Shown here: piece after piece, positions 3,927 through 16,050 of the stretch
Layout of the letters: each line of letters starts with the position of its first letter
Numbering within the stretch: the stretch's first letter is position 1
From: Candidatus Nanosynbacter sp. BB002
GTDB lineage: Bacteria; Patescibacteriota; Saccharimonadia; Saccharimonadales; Saccharimonadaceae
Length of the DNA: 32,000 bases
Assembly: GCF_037013405.1 (NCBI RefSeq)
Contig: NZ_CP146064.1
Location: forward strand, 360,001-392,000
Direction: 5' to 3'
Made by a program: the position numbers and the translations under genes
The notes under the pieces: generated by a model
Seen by the model: only the letters and a program-made list of their open reading frames with translations
Databases searched by the model: none
What the model was told of the DNA's origin: nothing

Positions 3927-4277
3927 CTAGAACTCCAATCCTTCTTGGCGCGCAGCATCAGCCAATGCTTTCAAGCGACCAGCATACTGGCGGCCATTGC
4001 GGTCAAAGACCACTGCGCTAATTTTACTTTTCTTTGCTTTCTTGGCAATTTCAGTACCGATGGTAGCGCATTTTTCGCTCATCGTACCTTTTGCTTTGGT
4101 GCCAACGGTAGTTGCGGCAGCCAATGTCTTGCCTGCGACGTCGTCGATCAGCTGAACACTAACGTGCAGGTTGCTGATGGTGACTGTCAGGCGTGGGCGC
4201 TCTGCAGTTCCTGAAACTTTCGCGCGAACGCGGTTTTTGCGAAGAGCGCGGTTGAGTAATTTCTTGTTTTCAGCCAT
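3927..4277 (-). CDS. rplR: 50S ribosomal protein L18
   Basis: 116 aa with RPRLTVTISNLHVSVQLIDD. It sits in the canonical position between rplF and rpsE. Confidence 0.94.
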   Translation of the reverse strand: MAENKKLLNRALRKNRVRAKVSGTAERPRLTVTISNLHVSVQLIDDVAGKTLAAATTVGTKAKGTMSEKCATIGTEIAKKAKKSKISAVVFDRNGRQYAGRLKALADAARQEGLEF

Positions 4278-4279
4278 GA

Positions 4280-4819
4280 TTACTTACCTGTCTTTCCTGC
4301 TTTACGCAAAATTTGCTCGTCAGCGTACTTGATACCCTTACCCTTGTATGGCTCAGGCTTCTTCAGCGCGCGGATTTCCGCAGCGACTTGGCCGACTTGC
4401 TGTTTATTGATACCGCTAACGATGATGGTCATCTTTTCGTTGGTAACGGTGATACCCTCTGGGGCTTTGTATTTGACTGGGTGTGAAAACCCGAGCGCCA
4501 TTTCCAGCTCATTGTTGCTGGAACTCACGCGGAAACCGACACCATTGACCTCGAGGCGCTTTTCGTAACCTTTGGTCACGCCGATTACCATATTATTGAT
4601 CAGCGCGCGCATCAGACCGTGCTGGGCGCGAGCAGTTTTGGACTCATCCTTCGGATGAACCGTGACTTGTCCGTCTTCGACTTTCACCTCAACTGCTGGC
4701 GTGATGAATTGTGTCAATTCACCTTTCGGGCCCTTTACGACCACGTCACCAGAGTCAACCGTGATTGTCACACCGGCCGGAATAACCACCGGCAGTTTTC
4801 CGATTCGACTCAGACTCAT
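4280..4819 (-). CDS. rplF: 50S ribosomal protein L6
   Basis: 179 aa beginning MSLSRIGKLPVVIPAGVTITV, with SD AAAGGTGAG upstream. Confidence 0.95.
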   Translation of the reverse strand: MSLSRIGKLPVVIPAGVTITVDSGDVVVKGPKGELTQFITPAVEVKVEDGQVTVHPKDESKTARAQHGLMRALINNMVIGVTKGYEKRLEVNGVGFRVSSSNNELEMALGFSHPVKYKAPEGITVTNEKMTIIVSGINKQQVGQVAAEIRALKKPEPYKGKGIKYADEQILRKAGKTGK

Positions 4820-4903: not shown

Positions 4904-5434
4904 TTAGTTACCGTATGGAATGAGTAGAATAATCGCCAAAATGCCGAGAGCAATATATGTTGCTAGCGCAGCCTTGGTCAAATACGGTTCTGGCATGGTG
5001 TAGATTTTACGCACTTCGTAATAATCCCATAGCCGCCAACCAGAGATCATTAAAAGAATACCAGCGAAGATACTTAAATAGCCGCTGACATCAATATGCC
5101 AAAGAAAGTTTGATGCATCAATTAGAGCAATGAATGTAGCCATCCCCATTGTCGACCAGAAGCGTGCTTGTGGCTTTTGTCCGACAGCCATAAAGCAGGC
5201 AGCGGCGACCATGATTAACTCAACGAGAGGATTTTCCATAAATAGTACTTGAATATAATAACTGGGGATTCCCTGCCTGGGGTCAGTGCTGCCAATAAGC
5301 CAACCTATTCCGTACAGTAGCGGCACCATAACGACAATAGATAACAAGAAGGGTAAAAAATCAACAGCTAAGACATCTTTAACAGTTATTTCTGCTTGGT
5401 TTGACGTTTTTGTCATATGGAGGAAGCTACGCAT
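4904..5434 (-). CDS. hypothetical 5-TM membrane protein
   Basis: I count five hydrophobic helices in the ORF. The start at 5434 (MRSFLHMTKT...) is preferred because TGcTATACT lies 8 nt upstream and there is no SD. Alternative starts are 5416 and 5503. Confidence 0.6.
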   Translation of the reverse strand: MRSFLHMTKTSNQAEITVKDVLAVDFLPFLLSIVVMVPLLYGIGWLIGSTDPRQGIPSYYIQVLFMENPLVELIMVAAACFMAVGQKPQARFWSTMGMATFIALIDASNFLWHIDVSGYLSIFAGILLMISGWRLWDYYEVRKIYTMPEPYLTKAALATYIALGILAIILLIPYGN

Positions 5435-5442
5435 ATGATTAC

Positions 5443-5451
5443 AGTATAGCA
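5443..5451 (-). promoter_or_regulatory. extended -10 TGcTATACT, 8 nt upstream of the ATG at 5434 (near-leaderless)
   Basis: The minus strand reads TTTTGCTATACTGTAATCATATG. Confidence 0.4.
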
Positions 5452-5532
5452 AAATATAATTCTTAAATATCGTAAAATGACGACGCTGATAAAAATTGTA
5501 CATATCTACCGGATTAGCGATAGTTCGTAAAT

Positions 5533-5543
5533 TGCTATATACT
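5533..5543 (+). promoter_or_regulatory. candidate extended -10 (TGcTATATA / TATACT) for the CYTH gene
   Basis: The sequence is attGCTATATACT, about 35 nt upstream of the GTG at 5577, in the divergent intergenic region. Confidence 0.3.
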
Positions 5544-5576
5544 TTTAGTATTGCGTAAGTAAGTTGGAGGTTCCGC

Positions 5577-6164
5577 GTGACAGAACAGTATGAAATAGAG
5601 CGTAAGCGTCAGTTTGTGGGCGATTTGGAGGCGTTTATTGTGCAGCTGAACTCTCAGGGATTTTCCTTGGCTAGCGAAACTACCGAAATTGATAGCTACT
5701 ATTCTCGGCCTGACGTTGATTTCATGCAGACAGTCGAATGTTTGCGGATTCGGCAGCGTGATGATTTTACTGAAATAACCTATAAGCCACCGACCAATCA
5801 GCGTACGCGCACTGAGGATGGGGTTATCGTCAAGCCAGAAACTAATCTGCCGGTCAATCCAGAGAATACGGCTGTCGCTAAGCAGCTGCTAGCAAATCTT
5901 GGTATGGTGAAATTGGTTGAGGTCAATAAGTTTCGACGCATATTTAAGTGTGACGATGAGCCGGGGCTAACGATTGCTATCGACGAGATCAGCGGTGCGG
6001 GTGTTTTTATAGAAACGGAAATCATCAGCGAAGATAAAGAGTTGGCTTTGCGGCGAATTGAGGATATTGAAGCGCGGATAGGAGTTCAGGAGTTTGAAAT
6101 CATCACTCGACCGTATCGAGATATTTGCATGGATATATCTTTGAGAGGTTGCCGACTAGCGTAG
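5577..6164 (+). CDS. CYTH-domain protein (triphosphate tunnel metalloenzyme; class IV adenylate cyclase CyaB-like / triphosphatase)
   Basis: GTG start with GGAGG 6 nt upstream. The N-terminal YEIERK matches the CYTH ExExK signature. LRIRQ and GVFIETEI strands also fit the tunnel fold. Confidence 0.75.
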   Translation: MTEQYEIERKRQFVGDLEAFIVQLNSQGFSLASETTEIDSYYSRPDVDFMQTVECLRIRQRDDFTEITYKPPTNQRTRTEDGVIVKPETNLPVNPENTAVAKQLLANLGMVKLVEVNKFRRIFKCDDEPGLTIAIDEISGAGVFIETEIISEDKELALRRIEDIEARIGVQEFEIITRPYRDICMDISLRGCRLA

Positions 6165-6555
6165 AATCCAATTTTTCTTGTTTGATTTCATGAATATCGA
6201 AATAGTTAAAGTTTGAGACTTCATTTGTTTTACGAGGTGCCGTTAATAGAGTAACTTCGTAGACAATAATCAAAACAGGGTCGTCGAACTTTGTATTCCA
6301 AGTTGGAATAATCAAGGGATTTTCTGTAGAGACTTCGACATCTGCTTCTAATTCTTCCAGAAACTCTCGTTTCAACGCTTCTGTAACATCCTCACCATGT
6401 TCCAGACCGCCGCCAGGAAGATCCCATGAATCACTTCTCTCTTGAACGAACAGTAGCTTGCCTGAATAATCACGCACTAATCCCTTGACTACTACTCGAT
6501 ATGCTGATTTTATGTCTTTTAGTGCTCTAACTCCCATATGATGAAAGCTTATCAT
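6103..6555 (-). CDS. Nudix hydrolase
   Basis: Nudix box GGLEHGEDVTEALKREFLEELE (Gx5Ex7REUxEE). The start is uncertain. The ATG at 6555 follows the rpsH terminator T-run directly. The ATG at 6537 is preceded by TGaTAAGCT-N8, which would make it leaderless. Confidence 0.8.
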   Translation of the reverse strand: MISFHHMGVRALKDIKSAYRVVVKGLVRDYSGKLLFVQERSDSWDLPGGGLEHGEDVTEALKREFLEELEADVEVSTENPLIIPTWNTKFDDPVLIIVYEVTLLTAPRKTNEVSNFNYFDIHEIKQEKLDSTLVGNLSKIYPCKYLDTVE

Positions 6556-6604: not shown

Positions 6605-7006
6605 TTAGTACACCTTCAACAACAATTCACCGCCAAGTTTAGCCTTGGCTGCTTCGGCGCCAGTCATGACACCTTTTGAGGTTGAGATGAGTACTAGACC
6701 GCGGCCAGATTTCACCTTTGGAATCTCGCTGGCGCCGACGTAAACACGACGACCTGGCTTTGATACGCGGGTGATTTCGTTGATGGTGCTGTTAGCGCCC
6801 TCTTCGTTGATGGTCACGACCAGCACACCACGAGGCTTGGCGTCTTCCAGTTTAACATCTGCGAGGTAGCCGTTTTTGACTAATTGTTCAGCGATGACTT
6901 TTTTCATCTTACTGGACGGAACACGAACTTCCGTCTTGCCAACCAGTTTCGCATTGCGAATGCGCGTCAGAAGGTCGGCGATTGGGTCTGTAGTTTGCAT
7001 AGACAT
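6605..7006 (-). CDS. rpsH: 30S ribosomal protein S8 (start trimmed to MSMQTTDPIADLL)
   Basis: Contains DPIADLLTRIRNA. AAGGAG lies 8 nt upstream of the ATG at 7006. The longer ORF-track start would overlap rpsN. Confidence 0.93.
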   Translation of the reverse strand: MSMQTTDPIADLLTRIRNAKLVGKTEVRVPSSKMKKVIAEQLVKNGYLADVKLEDAKPRGVLVVTINEEGANSTINEITRVSKPGRRVYVGASEIPKVKSGRGLVLISTSKGVMTGAEAAKAKLGGELLLKVY

Positions 7007-7026
7007 TGTCGAATCTCCTTTCCTTC

Positions 7027-7296
7027 TTACCAACTACTCTTTGTTATGCCTGGGATTTCGCCCTTGGCTGCTTTTTCGCGGAAATTGATGCGGCTCAGGC
7101 CGAACTGGCGCATGTAGCCACGTGGACGGCCGGAAATGCTGTCGCGGTTCTTGTGCCGAGTTGGGCTCGAGTTGCGAGGCAATTTCTGCAGTCCGTCGAG
7201 GTCGCCAAGTTCTTTGAGCCCAGCGCGCTTTGCAGCGTATTTTGCAATCATCTTCAGACGCTTTTTGTCGCGAGCGACCATTGATTTCTTAGCCAT
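7027..7296 (-). CDS. rpsN: 30S ribosomal protein S14, long Cys-free (non-zinc) form
   Basis: 89 aa ending ...[11 protein letters not shown], with no CxxC motifs. Confidence 0.93.
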
Positions 7297-8568: not shown

Positions 8569-8876
8569 TTGTCATCCTCCTTGGTCTCTTCCTCAGTTTC
8601 ACCAGAAACTTCAGCCTTTAGTTTGATAGAACCGCGAGACTTTTCAATCACCTTGACCAGCGTAAAGCTCTTGGTCTTGGAAATTGGGCGAGTCTCTTCG
8701 ATTTGCACCTTGTCGCCTTCGCCTGCTTCATTGGTCTCGTCATGAGCAGTGTATTTGCGAGTCACGGTGTACTGTTTGCCGTAGAGCGGATGCGTTTCGC
8801 GGCTGGTGACCGTCACAGTGATGGTCTTGTCGCGCTTGGCACTCGTTACGACGCCAATCAGTGTTCGTCGGGCCAT
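8565..8876 (-). CDS. rpsQ: 30S ribosomal protein S17 with acidic C-terminal extension
   Basis: Contains [21 protein letters not shown] and the tail ...[17 protein letters not shown]. There is a 4-nt ATGA overlap with rplN. Confidence 0.93.
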
Positions 8877-9082
8877 TACTTGCTCTCCTTTTCGTTAATT
8901 TGTGTCAGCAGGCGTGCGATGTCCTTGCGGAGTGAACGCAACGCTTTTGGATTAACTAATTCGCCAGCAGCGTGAGAACGTTTTGCCTGAAGCAGGTCAT
9001 GTCGCTTTTCGGCAAGCTCCTTCTTCAAATCGTCAACGGTCTTTACGACTGCTGCTTTTGTAGGTTTCTTTGTCTCAGCCAT
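8876..9082 (-). CDS. rpmC: 50S ribosomal protein L29
   Basis: 68 aa, helical and K/E-rich, in the canonical position between rplP and rpsQ. Confidence 0.9.
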   Translation of the reverse strand: MAETKKPTKAAVVKTVDDLKKELAEKRHDLLQAKRSHAAGELVNPKALRSLRKDIARLLTQINEKESK

Positions 9083-9495: not shown

Positions 9496-10131
9496 TTAGC
9501 GACTCCTTTCTCCCTTATAAATCCACACTTTCACGCCGATAATACCAGCTGGTGTCTGGGCGCGAGCGCAGTGGAAGTCGATATCAGCGCGAAGAGTGTG
9601 TAGTGGCACAGAGCCTTCAATCACCTTTTCGCGGCGTGCCATTTCAGCACCGTTCAAACGACCAGCCACCTCGATGCGGATACCTTTGGCACCAGCACTC
9701 ATGGTGTTTTGTGCGGTCATTTTGGTTGCGCGGCGGAAGTTGATGCGGCGCTCCAACTGGCGGGCGATGTTCTCTGCCACCAATTTGGCTGCTAGTTCCG
9801 GTCGGCGCACTTCTTCGATGTTGATGCGAACCGCCTGACCGACGATCTTCTCAACTTGTTTTTTCAATTCATTCACGCCAGCACCGCCACGGCCGATCAC
9901 CACACCAGCTTTCGCTGTGTGAATGGTTACCGTGATCAAGTTGGCACTCCGCTCAATCTCAATGCGATTGATGGTTGGGCGTGAGGCAAATTTCTTCTCA
10001 ATCAATTCGCGGATTTCGTGATCCTGGCGAATTGCCTCCGCGAACTCTTTCTTATTGGCCGTAAACCAACGAGAGCTCCAGTTCTTGTGAACTTGTAGGC
10101 GGAAGTTGATTGGATTCACTTTTTGACCCAT
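9496..10131 (-). CDS. rpsC: 30S ribosomal protein S3
   Basis: Begins MGQKVNPINFRLQVHKNWSSRWF and has KH-domain-like GRGGAG. The SD GAGGAGGAG lies in the preceding small ORF. Confidence 0.95.
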   Translation of the reverse strand: MGQKVNPINFRLQVHKNWSSRWFTANKKEFAEAIRQDHEIRELIEKKFASRPTINRIEIERSANLITVTIHTAKAGVVIGRGGAGVNELKKQVEKIVGQAVRINIEEVRRPELAAKLVAENIARQLERRINFRRATKMTAQNTMSAGAKGIRIEVAGRLNGAEMARREKVIEGSVPLHTLRADIDFHCARAQTPAGIIGVKVWIYKGERSR

Positions 10132-10305
10132 TTACTTCTCCTCCTCTTCTTCTGGTAGATATTGACCAACAGTGAGCTGACGCATATCTTCAGAGCTAAT
10201 CACATCGCTAGTGATACCGACTTTTCCTAGAGATACTGTCAATCCTTCATTAAGCATTGCACGCTCAGCTTGGGTAGGAGCATGGTTTGGATTCAATACA
10301 CTCAT
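10132..10305 (-). CDS. unannotated 57-aa acidic ORF between rplV and rpsC, translationally coupled at both ends
   Basis: Below the 60-aa cut-off of the ORF track. The ATG at 10305..10303 overlaps the rplV TAA (TAATG). The TAA at 10134..10132 abuts the rpsC ATG (TAAATG). Translation: MSVLNPNHAPTQAERAMLNEGLTVSLGKVGITSDVISSEDMRQLTVGQYLPEEEEEK. The SD GGAGGA lies 6 nt upstream, inside the rplV codons. Confidence 0.6.
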   Translation of the reverse strand: MSVLNPNHAPTQAERAMLNEGLTVSLGKVGITSDVISSEDMRQLTVGQYLPEEEEEK

Positions 10306-10742
10306 TATGCTTCCTCCTTCTTTGCAGGCTTGGCAGGTTTGGTCTCTGCCTTTGCCTTGGTCTCTGGTTTCTTCGCAGGTGCCTTCTTTGGCTTCTCCGT
10401 GCCAGTTACTTCAACCAAGATGTTTGACGTCTTTTTCTGGAACGGCAAGGCACGACCGCGTGACGCTGGCTTAAAGCGACGCAGACGCGTACCAGTGGTA
10501 ACACTCAATGTGGTGATCACCAAGCTTTTAGCGTCCAAACCGTGGTTGTTGATAGCGTTTGCCTTGGCACTGTCGATAGCCTTTTTAACTGGCATAGCAG
10601 CGCGTTTTGGTACGTGCTCCAAGATAACCAATGCATCAGCGACGGTGCGGCCGCGTACTAGTGCAGCCACCAAGCTAACCTTGCGTGGTGTTTGGTCAAC
10701 ACCTTTGGCGTAAGCGCGAACAGTATAAGTTGTATCAGCCAT
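10305..10742 (-). CDS. rplV: 50S ribosomal protein L22 with Lys/Ala/Pro-rich C-terminal extension
   Basis: L22 core (VRAYAKGVDQTPRKVSLVAALVRG...) plus the tail GTEKPKKAPAKKPETKAKAETKPAKPAKKEEA. Confidence 0.93.
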   Translation of the reverse strand: MADTTYTVRAYAKGVDQTPRKVSLVAALVRGRTVADALVILEHVPKRAAMPVKKAIDSAKANAINNHGLDAKSLVITTLSVTTGTRLRRFKPASRGRALPFQKKTSNILVEVTGTEKPKKAPAKKPETKAKAETKPAKPAKKEEA

Positions 10743-13582: not shown

Positions 13583-13915
13583 TCAGATCATCACGCCCAC
13601 TGGCGTAAATGAGGTCAAAATTGCCATCAAAATGAGGGTAACGTACCAAATTTTGCGGTTAAATTGATACTGTTCAATCTTCAGAACTAGCAACAGCGCT
13701 ACGAACAAGCCAACTGGCACGGCCTGCACAGTGAAAGCGCCTAACTCAAAGGGGTTTTTGAGACGCAACCACAGTGCACTGAGGATGACAAATATCACCA
13801 ATTTCAAGAAAAAGGTGCCGTCGTTTTCATAAATTCGCTCACGTCCTTTGCGGCTGAACAAAGCGCTGGACTTTGAGCGGTTGCGGGCGTAGGTGCGAGA
13901 TTTTTGTTTTGTCAT
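13583..13915 (-). CDS. hypothetical small membrane protein (110 aa, basic N-terminus, 3 hydrophobic segments)
   Basis: ORF between rpsJ and rplC. It has a short SD-less 13-nt leader after TGcTATAAT. Confidence 0.55.
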   Translation of the reverse strand: MTKQKSRTYARNRSKSSALFSRKGRERIYENDGTFFLKLVIFVILSALWLRLKNPFELGAFTVQAVPVGLFVALLLVLKIEQYQFNRKIWYVTLILMAILTSFTPVGVMI

Positions 13916-14407: not shown

Positions 14408-15343
14408 CTAGGCTTTATCAAGGTGGGCAATCATTTCACCGATGATTGCAGCGGAATTATTGAGAGACTCCTTTTCGCGTTCAGTCAGTGGATAGCCCGT
14501 CAAAATTTTTACGCCGTCACAACAAATAATCGACGGTAAGCCCAGTACCACATTGTCCAGTCCATATTCACCCTCAGCCAGTGAACAAACTGGATAGACC
14601 GTGCGTGTCGATTGACGTAAGGCCGAGACAATCTTAGAAACCACAAAGCCAATGGCAAAATACGTCGACTTCTTTGTCTCAATCACTCGGTAGGCGCGGT
14701 CACGGATTTTCTGCTCAATGCCCTCAACCAATTCCTCAGTGAAGCCTGGATATTCACGAATCGGTACTTCGCCGACCTGCGCCGTTTCAATGGTCGAAAA
14801 CGAAGAGTCACCGTGCTCGCCCAAGATGTACGCGTCGACCGCCTTGCTGTCGACATTCAGCGCGTCGGCCAGGTACGACTTTAGCCGTGACGTGTCCAGT
14901 GTCGTTCCCGTGCCGAACACTCGGGTTTTTGGCAGTCCTGATTCCTTCAACGCCACGTAGGTCAAGACGTCGACTGGGTTGCTGACGACCACCAAATACG
15001 GCTTGGCGCCACCAGCCATGATGTTTTTGACAATGTCACGCATGATGTTAGCATTGACACCGACCAACTCCAGTCGCGTCTGACCTGGCAACTGCGGCGA
15101 ACCGGCAGTGATAACCACGATGTCATTGTCGTTGATATCAGCGTAGTCCCCCGGGCGCACCACCACGTTGCGGTCAAGCCCCATGGCGTCGTTGATATCC
15201 GCGGCTTGACCCCACGCCAAATCCGCATTGCGGTCGATCAATACAATTTCTTCAATCACACTGCGCAGCGCACACGCATACGCCGTCGTCGCGCCAACCA
15301 TTCCGCCACCACCGATAATCACCAGTTTCTGTTTATTCACCAT
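14408..15343 (-). CDS. ldh: L-lactate dehydrogenase (LDH/MDH superfamily)
   Basis: Rossmann motif VIIGGGGMVG. The substrate loop AGSPQLPGQTRLEL has Gln at the position that is Gln in LDH and Arg in MDH (position 102). The catalytic motif is GEHGDS and the Arg171-equivalent lies in LDTSRL. Confidence 0.85.
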   Translation of the reverse strand: MVNKQKLVIIGGGGMVGATTAYACALRSVIEEIVLIDRNADLAWGQAADINDAMGLDRNVVVRPGDYADINDNDIVVITAGSPQLPGQTRLELVGVNANIMRDIVKNIMAGGAKPYLVVVSNPVDVLTYVALKESGLPKTRVFGTGTTLDTSRLKSYLADALNVDSKAVDAYILGEHGDSSFSTIETAQVGEVPIREYPGFTEELVEGIEQKIRDRAYRVIETKKSTYFAIGFVVSKIVSALRQSTRTVYPVCSLAEGEYGLDNVVLGLPSIICCDGVKILTGYPLTEREKESLNNSAAIIGEMIAHLDKA

Positions 15344-15375
15344 ATCTCCTTTTTGTGTTAGATGTATTGTCTATA

Positions 15376-15969
15376 CTATTTTACCATAGGTACTATGTCG
15401 TTAGGGTCTGGGTTGAGGTTGCAAGACTCCTCGAGGCCAAAGCCCTCCCTAGCTCGGCCTTGATCCATGGCACGAATATTATACCCACCAGTAGCATTTG
15501 GGTCGGCATCAACAAAGTAGTAATGTATCTCTCCCTCAGGGAGCTGGCGTGGAATGCACATATGAGCGCCACCATTATCCTTTTCTTTCCAACCATCACG
15601 CGGATATCCTTTGCCCTCACAGCGCGTGGAGTCGACCTCTGTGGCAATTTTATCCCATCCGCTACTAATCAGTGCATTCTCCCAGGACAATACATATTCT
15701 TTGTCCTGAAAACACAGTCTCAAGCTCTCATCGTCAGAGAAACCGGCCGTATTTTCTATGTTTGGGTATTTTGGCGAAGCCTCAGTATCAAGACCACCGT
15801 CAACTGGAGAGGTATCTTCCGTGCTCACAACCTCTGGCTGCGCAACATGCTGCTCATCTGCTGGTTTTTCGCAGCCGACTAAGCTTAACGACAGTGTACC
15901 AGCTGCCGCCACAGCTGCAGCTCGCCTCCACCAAGAAAAACCGTATTCCAACCCTGCTTCTCTGTTCAT
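15376..15969 (-). CDS. hypothetical lipoprotein (start trimmed to MNREAGLEY...)
   Basis: Signal peptide with lipobox LSLVGC. AAGGAG lies 7 nt upstream of the ATG at 15969. The longer ORF-track start at 16050 would run through the predicted promoter. Confidence 0.65.
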   Translation of the reverse strand: MNREAGLEYGFSWWRRAAAVAAAGTLSLSLVGCEKPADEQHVAQPEVVSTEDTSPVDGGLDTEASPKYPNIENTAGFSDDESLRLCFQDKEYVLSWENALISSGWDKIATEVDSTRCEGKGYPRDGWKEKDNGGAHMCIPRQLPEGEIHYYFVDADPNATGGYNIRAMDQGRAREGFGLEESCNLNPDPNDIVPMVK

Positions 15970-16021
15970 ATGATTACTCCTTTTTTGCTTATTATTACCC
16001 TCTCCCAACCCTTTACCCATT

Positions 16022-16050
16022 ACCATACCAATGCGGCTGGTGATTGTCAA
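16022..16050 (-). promoter_or_regulatory. sigma70-like promoter for lipoprotein-ldh (TTGACA-17-TATGGT)
   Basis: Perfect -35 TTGACA (16050..16045), 17-nt spacer, -10 TATGGT (16027..16022), immediately after the tuf terminator. Confidence 0.55.

Follow-up and report, generated by a model that had tools for sequence, protein, structure and literature searches.

Why does a ribosomal protein operon whose genes almost touch one another carry an extra small cistron between two of them? The question is raised by a 32,000-nt stretch of the genome of Candidatus Nanosynbacter sp. BB002 (NZ_CP146064.1, positions 360,001 to 392,000; hereafter the window, meaning this whole stretch), in which an open reading frame (ORF) of 57 codons lies in the S10 operon between rplV and rpsC, the genes for uL22 and uS3. 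BB002, an oral Saccharibacterium (TM7) of humans, is kept in culture on Actinomyces sp. F0337, and its 804-kb genome is closed (PMC11737083). We favor, at a probability of roughly 0.6, the reading that the small ORF is a dispensable insert, tolerated because it relays ribosomes from rplV to rpsC. The observations that carry this reading are the geometry of the two junctions, the Shine-Dalgarno (SD) sequences, retention of the frame, near-neutral drift of codons 2–41, dispensability of the ORF, and recurrence of the same arrangement elsewhere.

Geometry of the rplV/rpsC Junction

An earlier note on this DNA had described the space between rplV and rpsC as filled exactly by one ORF that overlaps the rplV stop and touches the rpsC start, and all coordinates of that description are confirmed. 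The parts are as follows.

10305..10742, minus strand: rplV (uL22), 145 aa; Pfam Ribosomal_L22, PF00237, E = 2.9e-27
10313..10317, minus strand: GGAGG, SD of the small ORF, within the last rplV codons, 7 nt before the ATG
10311..10318, minus strand: left copy of a short direct repeat at the insert border, AGGAGGAA in the window, from comparison of filled and empty sites
10303..10307, minus strand: TAATG, rplV stop and small-ORF start overlapping by one base, the same in every carrier locus
10132..10305, minus strand: small ORF, 57 codons and stop, its sequence exactly as given in the earlier note
10183..10302, minus strand: codons 2–41, hypervariable part of the small ORF, 13/40 residues identical between allele types A and B
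10135..10182, minus strand: codons 42–57, conserved C-terminal part RQLtVGQYLPEEEEEK, 13/14 residues identical between types A and B
10138..10146, minus strand: GAGGAGGAG, Glu codons of the small ORF doubling as the rpsC SD, 6 nt before the rpsC ATG
10138..10145, minus strand: right copy of the direct repeat, AGGAGGAG, from comparison of filled and empty sites
10129..10134, minus strand: TAAATG, small-ORF stop flush against the rpsC start, as read from the sequence
9496..10131, minus strand: rpsC (uS3), 211 aa, downstream of the insert; Pfam KH_2 and Ribosomal_S3_C

The rplV stop codon (TAA, 10307..10305) and the ATG of the small ORF (10305..10303) have base 10305 in common, and the small-ORF stop (TAA, 10134..10132) is followed with zero gap by the rpsC ATG (10131..10129). 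The small ORF has the features of a coupled cistron: it lies on the same strand as its neighbors, its junctions are −1 upstream and 0 downstream, and the SD is found inside the end of the upstream ORF. Both SD sequences, the one in the last rplV codons and the one formed by the Glu codons, were read from the sequence where they had been proposed, and the layout of the former matches that of other gene starts in the operon. The other operon junctions measured precisely, from rplC to rpsN apart from rplD-rplW-rplB, range from a 4-nt overlap up to a 6-nt gap. When the spacer is shuffled, an ORF coupled at both ends arises with P = 0.002.

The exact peptide is present in public records as WP_338521192.1 / WWR08607.1 (‘hypothetical protein V4210_02000’, Candidatus Nanosynbacter sp. 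BB002), so the gene, which had been taken for unannotated, is annotated publicly though uncharacterized. Its product, an acidic peptide of 6.2 kDa that includes AMLNEGLTVSLGK, had also been described as free of Cys; this holds for the allele type of the window, while the second allele type has two to three Cys. The 20-mer GTTGGTCAATATCTACCAGA from the conserved 3′ part of the ORF occurs only once in the window.

Presence and Absence within One Species

How widely is this cistron distributed? A first protein search retrieved 15 clusters of 56–57 aa with 82–98% identity to the small-ORF product, and two successive profile searches, the first against 1.84 billion representative proteins, added only variants of 54–57 aa with 40–67% identity. 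Every genomic context fetched has the layout L22-ORF-S3 with the same two junction geometries, and no member of the family was found away from the rplV-rpsC junction among the relatives retrieved from 1.84 and 5.8 billion proteins. The exact protein occurs on 88 contigs and a second allele (P0022) on 110, and the family is represented in the closed genome and, among independent samples, on well over 250 contigs. A seeming 46-aa variant (P0016) was rejected as a contig end fused to an apparent transposase- or adapter-like sequence (CTGTCTCTTGATCACATCT; L095:1990-2045). A 407-aa protein that seems to resemble a membrane transporter (P0033) is mis-clustered with the 57-aa family.

An S3 search with one genome per species gave 33 Saccharibacteria loci; for most genomes the sequence covered was ±3 kb around rpsC. 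The small ORF is absent from all 33 loci, and in 30 of them the L22 stop overlaps or nearly touches the S3 ATG. L001, for example, has an S3 with 100% protein and 97% DNA identity, but the ORF is absent and the L22 TAA abuts the rpsC ATG. Metagenomes were then scanned, without bias, for a DNA pattern that filled and empty junctions share. Within the clade of at least 94% rpsC identity, 8 sites are filled and 24 are empty, that is, about 25% of 32 loci carry the ORF (two sites are on partial contigs), and in the sister clade of 85–94% rpsC identity the same scan found none of 36 sites filled. The ORF is genuine and lineage-restricted: it is confined to one species-level clade and always stands at the rplV-rpsC junction. 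Carriers and non-carriers are scattered among one another in a tree of the downstream 1,360 nt, and downstream flank distances are alike between the two groups (0.047) and within them (0.041 and 0.050). Therefore, the small ORF is a presence/absence polymorphism within one recombining species.

Comparison of filled sites with empty ones (L001 and L107-type) defines an insert of ~167–176 nt with an 8-nt direct repeat, AGGAGGAG, at its borders; the left copy reads AGGAGGAG in alleles with a 153-aa L22. The small ORF ends in two sense codons and a stop (AAG TAA) that correspond to the end of L22 in empty-site strains. Strains without the insert carry the same SD-stop-ATG string ahead of rpsC, and TAAATG is the rplV/rpsC junction itself in the empty-site strains L001 and L002.

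The uL22 tail next to the insert is rich in Lys, Ala, Pro, and Glu and varies in length, with a total of 145, 153, or 154 aa depending on strain. It contains a 9-nt repeat encoding PAK at 10320..10342 (tail region 10308-10345), and its haplotypes differ between ORF carriers (..ADKPAKKEEA or ..PAKKEEA) and non-carriers (..AAETTAKKEEK), the tails of L001, L096, and L093 being included in this comparison. An apparent disruption of L22 in L098 was dismissed as a scaffold gap of Ns in the L22 tail (L098:3850-3950). One type-B carrier (L093:977-1390) has an rplP near that of the sister species (dS 0.078 to L002) and the rpsC of the main species, a mix that reflects either interspecies recombination or a chimeric metagenome contig.

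Divergence of the Alleles

How does the ORF evolve in the strains that have it? The 11 distinct DNA alleles fall into two deep types, A and B, plus clear A/B mosaics. Type A products start with MSVLNPNHAPT and type B products with MCMLKTEQ.PAPTD. Allele products share 40–98% identity, against at least 99% for the flanking S3 protein; between alleles, dN of S3 is 0–0.006, and the small ORF reaches a dN of 0.41 and a dS of 0.72. The identity between types A and B rises along the ORF, with 4/17, 9/23, and 13/14 residues identical in its successive parts.

The frame is kept in every relative that has the ORF, a point that the earlier note had proposed to check. None of the 11 alleles has a stop in it, the other five frames contain 1–7 stops each, and the allele lengths of 165, 168, 171, 174, and 177 nt imply that every indel is a multiple of three; the neutral expectation of the frame staying open is 0.17–0.38 per allele pair. 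Constraint is uneven along the ORF. From codon 42 to the end (RQLxVGQYLPEEE..K) pN/pS is 0.18–0.7, with p of 0.03–0.06 in several pairs, against 0.56–1.7 for codons 2–41. Omega of the whole ORF is about 0.4–0.8, with values between alleles of 0.27–1.2 and bootstrap intervals mostly including 1, against 0–0.13 for the flanking genes; because the ORF is short these selection tests have low power, and recombination blurs tree-based inference. The GC content at third codon positions (GC3) is 0.14–0.29 in the small ORF, against 0.41–0.63 in every other gene of the window, while the values at first and second positions (GC1 and GC2) are normal for coding sequence. Therefore, the ORF has a genuine coding history, with foreign or unoptimized codon usage.

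Searches for a Protein Family, a Fold, or an RNA

Is the product a new part of the ribosome? The earlier note had suggested that a small protein made stoichiometrically with L22 and S3 could be a lineage-specific ribosome-associated factor. Small ribosomal or ribosome-associated proteins of ~40–60 aa do exist, among them bL36, a product of the spc operon, and bS22/Sra, and they are basic and broadly conserved. The small-ORF product resembles both in size, and bL36 in its location in a ribosomal protein operon; unlike them, it is acidic, hypervariable, restricted to part of one species, and without a family match. Its sequence has no match in Pfam, NCBIfam, or PHROGs (chance-level only), nor among PDB sequences, and weak profile matches to would-be distant homologs (P0018-P0021) were rejected as spurious, the proteins being TPR, SprB, and Big_2 repeat proteins. 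A phage or plasmid origin was also rejected, since tblastn of phages and plasmids returned nothing and the PHROGs matches are at chance level. The AlphaFold2 model is mostly of low confidence or disordered (pLDDT 64, pTM 0.32), with one helix at residues 12–26 (pLDDT ~84).

A factor of this kind is thus unsupported, though conceivable: the ORF is missing in ~75% of its own species and in all other Saccharibacteria lineages sampled, its first 41 codons evolve almost neutrally next to strongly constrained ribosomal protein genes, and it has neither homologs in the family libraries and PDB nor a confident fold. Since most sister strains lack the ORF and it evolves nearly freely, its appearance is that of a tolerated insert and not of a new part of the ribosome. 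The coupling at both ends is no argument for a ribosomal function either, because unrelated, even repetitive, inserts elsewhere have the same kind of bridging ORF (see below).

The spacer does not behave as a conserved RNA structure, the outcome that the earlier note had named as contrary to a coding function. Rfam gives no family, only a chance-level snoRNA match (E = 2.3) outside the small ORF; the folding of the region is not unusually stable (z-score +0.61); and its coding strand has neither promoter nor terminator. A structured RNA element was rejected on these grounds.

Bridging ORFs in Other Saccharibacteria

Is the arrangement peculiar to this species? A total of 362 ribosomal-operon junctions from 41 Saccharibacteria loci and the window were screened for long gaps (31–400 nt), and an ORF was regarded as bridging if its start lies no more than 12 nt from the upstream stop and its end no more than 12 nt from the downstream start. 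Such ORFs, coupled at both ends, bridge 18 of the 20 long gaps, where shuffles predict 1.24; the counts are partly non-independent, as the bridging ORF of L188 is identical to that of L189 and one element accounts for several of the inserts. The two unbridged gaps look like N-terminal extensions whose starts were mis-set by the gene-start rule.

The rplV-rpsC junction is filled in three further Saccharibacteria outside Nanosynbacter (L022, L031, and L032), each time by an unrelated ORF. These ORFs start with an ATGA overlap with a TGA stop and end on or beside the rpsC ATG; tight rplV-rpsC junctions have TAA in 30 of 30 cases. Relatives of L031, including L189 and L190, were found through the L22 of L031. 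In L189, inserts occur as L2-[50 aa]-S19, L22-[47 aa]-S3, and S3-[36 aa]-L16, and L190 has S19-[39 aa]-L22. The bridging peptides are unrelated between groups, and within groups they occur in multiple copies at different junctions of the same operon.

L031:1248-1364, 2886-2999, and 4054-4164: three copies in L031
L018:1384-1497, 4516-4638, and 5910-6020, and L190:1079-1198: three copies in L018 and one in L190
L189:786-938, 1592-1735, and 2367-2477: intercistronic elements of L189, whose group comprises two copies in L189 and a relative in L032
L019:937-1116 (59 aa), L021:2043-2348 (101 aa), and L026:2120-2350 (76 aa): bridging ORFs between L2 and S19 (rplB-rpsS) in three other species, single-copy, non-repetitive, protein-like, and acidic

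The multi-copy elements are ~110–150 nt long and contain heptamer repeats, palindromes, and a shared 3′ motif, GCGACyGrArGGAG, which supplies the SD of the downstream gene; judged by these features, they look like mobile elements of the type of mycobacterial interspersed repetitive units (MIRUs). The ORF of the window has no similarity to the multi-copy bridging groups (z below 2); what it shares with them, and with the L2-S19 ORFs of L019, L021, and L026, is the bridging architecture. For bridging inserts, L2-S19 looks like a hot spot. Another repeat expansion is found in the operon of L031, where the uL22 N-terminus has an in-frame extension of four AGAGTCA heptamers (MATKSQESRVKSHE..; L031:2467-2510).

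A Tolerated Relay of Ribosomes?

What do all these inserts have in common? It is uninterrupted coupled translation and not the peptide, and therefore the relay of ribosomes from rplV to rpsC is the most likely reading. According to this proposal, an insert of ~170 nt, recent and probably foreign, came to lie precisely at the rplV-stop/rpsC-start junction in one Nanosynbacter species, where it now segregates as a presence/absence polymorphism with very divergent, recombining alleles. Ribosomes that finish rplV would restart at the ATG of the small ORF through TAATG and its own SD, read 54–58 codons, stop at the TAA touching the rpsC ATG, and restart on rpsC using the SD made of the Glu codons. 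Thus, rpsC and the block downstream would stay continuously translated, as in strains without the insert, and the insert would be tolerated because it is built as a translational relay.

Termination-reinitiation coupling is known in ribosomal protein operons, namely the S10 and L11 operons of Escherichia coli (PMC6728339, PMC10666635, PMC12548453). The junctions here follow the same rule, with overlaps of −1 or −4 nt or gaps of 0–3 nt and the SD in the last codons of the upstream gene, and it holds for all measured junctions of this operon. In the known cases both partners are functional ribosomal protein genes, whereas here an orphan, fast-evolving ORF is interposed. That a short ORF can act solely to deliver ribosomes to a coupled gene is described in section 11 of PMC12548453, and the short upstream ORFs cited there (Shell et al., 2015) and bicistronic-design expression cassettes are alike in that the act of translating matters and not the product. 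Adjacent stop and start codons and an SD inside the short ORF are shared features. Such ORFs sit at the 5′ end of a transcript; the ORF of the window lies midway along the S10 operon with coupling on either side, and so would pass ribosomes on rather than recruit them.

On the basis of the coupling and polarity documented for ribosomal protein operons (PMC12548453), we infer that the small ORF is translated and that interrupting its translation would reduce the synthesis of S3 or leave the mRNA exposed. The property under selection would then be coupling, or avoidance of an untranslated gap, and the peptide itself would do little or nothing. The better-conserved ~15 codons at the end, in turn, would be the cis-acting part, comprising the initiation region of rpsC and the end of the relay. 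These codons (the 48 nt before the rpsC ATG) may be constrained as an initiation region, as a peptide motif, or as both.

Several observations weigh against this reading. rpsC has a strong SD of its own, and strict dependence on the relay is thus only proposed. GC1 (0.53–0.65) is far above GC3 (0.14–0.29) in every allele (Fisher p 4e-5 to 6e-3), which is the signature of a real protein-coding history and not of random filler. Across the deeply diverged alleles L18, L22, L26, G27, I36, R42, L44, and QYLP are invariant, and LGKV is retained although every codon of it has changed synonymously; these positions, together with the low pN/pS of the last 15 codons, would fit some selection on the peptide. 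Furthermore, dS between types A and B is ~0.55–0.72, two to four times that of the flanks, which could indicate long-term balancing selection.

Alternative Explanations

Could the peptide itself be the reason for the ORF? The best-surviving alternative is a functional accessory micro-protein, acidic and expressed at the level of ribosomal proteins, that would work in trans, with the ribosome or the Actinomyces host as its target or in conflict with phages or toxins; its diversity and patchy presence would reflect diversifying or balancing selection. In its fullest form, a horizontally acquired, strain-specific micro-protein would be made at ribosomal protein abundance, with the allele classes (none, A, B, and mosaics) kept by such selection, e.g., through epibiont-host or phage conflict, or through modulation of the ribosome by the QYLPEEE tail; more broadly, Saccharibacteria ribosomal operons would harbor several undescribed families of intercistronic elements with an obligatory through-reading ORF. 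The coding-like, period-3 base composition fits this explanation, as do the invariant hydrophobic positions with the spacing of a helix (and the helix predicted at residues 12–26), the conserved C-terminal QYLPEEE motif with its low pN/pS, alleles that are mosaic and deeper than their flanks, and the wide occurrence of the exact protein and of P0022. The ORF, however, is missing from about three quarters of conspecific strains and from all other lineages, its omega is indistinguishable from 1 over most of the ORF, neither a homolog nor a confident fold was found, and the codon usage is unadapted despite the ribosomal-operon context. We regard a functional micro-protein, in the narrower and the broader form alike, as possible but doubtful.

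A second alternative concerns origin and is compatible with the relay: the insert may be a decayed single copy of a mobile intercistronic element resembling MIRUs or MITEs (miniature inverted-repeat transposable elements). MIRUs (Supply et al., 1997) are elements of 40–100 bp with ~40–50 dispersed, often tandem, copies and GC-rich internal inverted repeats, and are described as inserting with a coupled ORF (PMC12548453, PMC3184786). The insert of the window resembles those described there in being short and intercistronic, in having an ORF that at each end overlaps or touches the stop or start codon of the neighboring gene so that coupling is kept, and in being present in some strains and missing from the site in others, with short direct repeats at the border, here the 8-nt AGGAGGAG. 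It is also AT-rich like the multi-copy elements of the same bridging-ORF design in L018, L031, L189, and L190. Unlike the MIRUs of these accounts, the insert is ~170 nt long and, as tested, of a single site and a single copy (no second copy is present in the 32-kb window, and the profile search of 1.84 billion proteins finds only this junction); it contains no inverted repeats, terminal or internal, and no tandem units, and it has a protein-like composition by codon position. It has no similarity to the other bridging ORFs (z below 2), and the direct repeat may reflect microhomology or convergence, because it is the SD sequence itself. The inserts of L018, L031, and L189 fit the MIRU pattern much better. 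Rickettsia palindromic elements (RPEs; Ogata et al., 2000, listed in PMC3184786) are small selfish inserts that likewise survive in essential translated regions through a preserved reading frame; they lie in frame inside genes and join the host protein, whereas the insert here is a separate cistron. Altogether, descent from a mobile element is unlikely for the insert of the window.

Third, RQLxVGQYLPEEE might act in cis as a nascent peptide in the exit tunnel, where arrest or destabilization at the acidic run would tune translation of rpsC. The gradient of conservation toward the 3′ end is typical of leader or arrest peptides, and Pro followed by a Glu run adjoins the stop codon. The Glu run is, however, explained by the SD and is also present at the C-terminus of L22 in empty-site strains. 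Moreover, types A and B do not differ synonymously in codons 46–51, so that conservation here may act on DNA or RNA or reflect recent recombination beside the conserved flank. Allele P0022 changes TVG to IIS, and the gene is dispensable. A regulatory nascent peptide is a very improbable explanation.

Fourth, and again as an origin compatible with the relay, the ORF could be a degenerate, incomplete copy of a neighboring gene, either rpsC at its 5′ end or rpmC (uL29), produced by tandem or ectopic duplication of the SD-stop-ATG junction. TGAATCCAA is found near the start of both the small ORF and rpsC, the rplV/ORF junction GGAGGAAGCATAATG and the rplP/rpmC junction GGAGGACGCATAATG are almost the same string, and GGVINPEGLRQL of type B resembles GELVNPKALRSL of uL29 (z ~4, window 8876-9082 vs L093:176-340), a likeness otherwise unconfirmed statistically. 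Against S3 or L22, though, the small ORF has no significant similarity, neither protein nor DNA rising above shuffles, and its start region resembles rpsC no better than it does rpmC or rplB; on this account, an origin by tandem duplication of the rpsC 5′ end was rejected as unsupported. Paralogy with uL29 was also rejected, since a Pfam L29 match is found in 0 of 21 members, the hhalign probability is 1.6%, BLASTP gives nothing, and the DNA similarity to rpmC has z ~0.9, leaving a local likeness of type B. Duplication is thus a most unlikely source of the ORF.

Finally, an untranslated spacer with a frame open by chance or by an assembly artefact is hardly credible, given the closed genome and the independent contigs, the shuffle P of 0.002, the single frame open in all 11 alleles, and the invariance of both junction geometries and both SDs.

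Other Features of the Operon

The window contains further departures from the usual order of ribosomal protein genes. The spc operon is broken between rpsH (6605..7033) and rplF (4280..4819) by a low-GC island at 4904-6555, with the following genes.

6103..6555, minus strand: NUDIX gene
5577..6164, opposite strand: CYTH gene
4904..5503: ORF of 199 aa without a Pfam match

The gene that follows rpsH varies among other strains of the species: its product is one of 139 aa, one of 122 aa, an Abhydrolase_11 protein, or, on the other strand, one of 78 aa. Non-ribosomal genes are also found inside the tuf-rpsJ-rplC stretch, at 13583-13915 and 14408-16050. These include a lactate/malate dehydrogenase gene (14408..15343), a 224-aa ORF without a Pfam match (15376..16050), and, between rpsJ and rplC, a 110-aa ORF that also has no Pfam match; a gene of ~360 aa ends at the same place in L096, L097, and L100.

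Implications

The gene is already known as a ‘hypothetical protein’. New with respect to the literature searched are its population behavior, the explanation of its placement between rplV and rpsC, and the phylum-wide rule of bridging ORFs, including the multi-copy elements; no description of MIRU-like intercistronic elements in the Candidate Phyla Radiation was found in that literature. The recurrence in 18 of 20 long gaps and the at least three multi-copy groups point to the existence of such elements there.

The S10/spc cluster is among the most conserved gene arrangements of bacteria, and a new cistron is here documented at the population level in its most tightly coupled stretch, the relay design being the feature that appears to make the insertion tolerable. 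Because BB002 is cultivated and conspecific strains without the insert exist, the relay and micro-protein hypotheses are directly testable. The locus also offers a natural test of how far ribosomal protein operons depend on uninterrupted translation. If it is true that whole families of elements must carry a through-reading ORF, continuous translation would be under unusually strict selection in Saccharibacteria.

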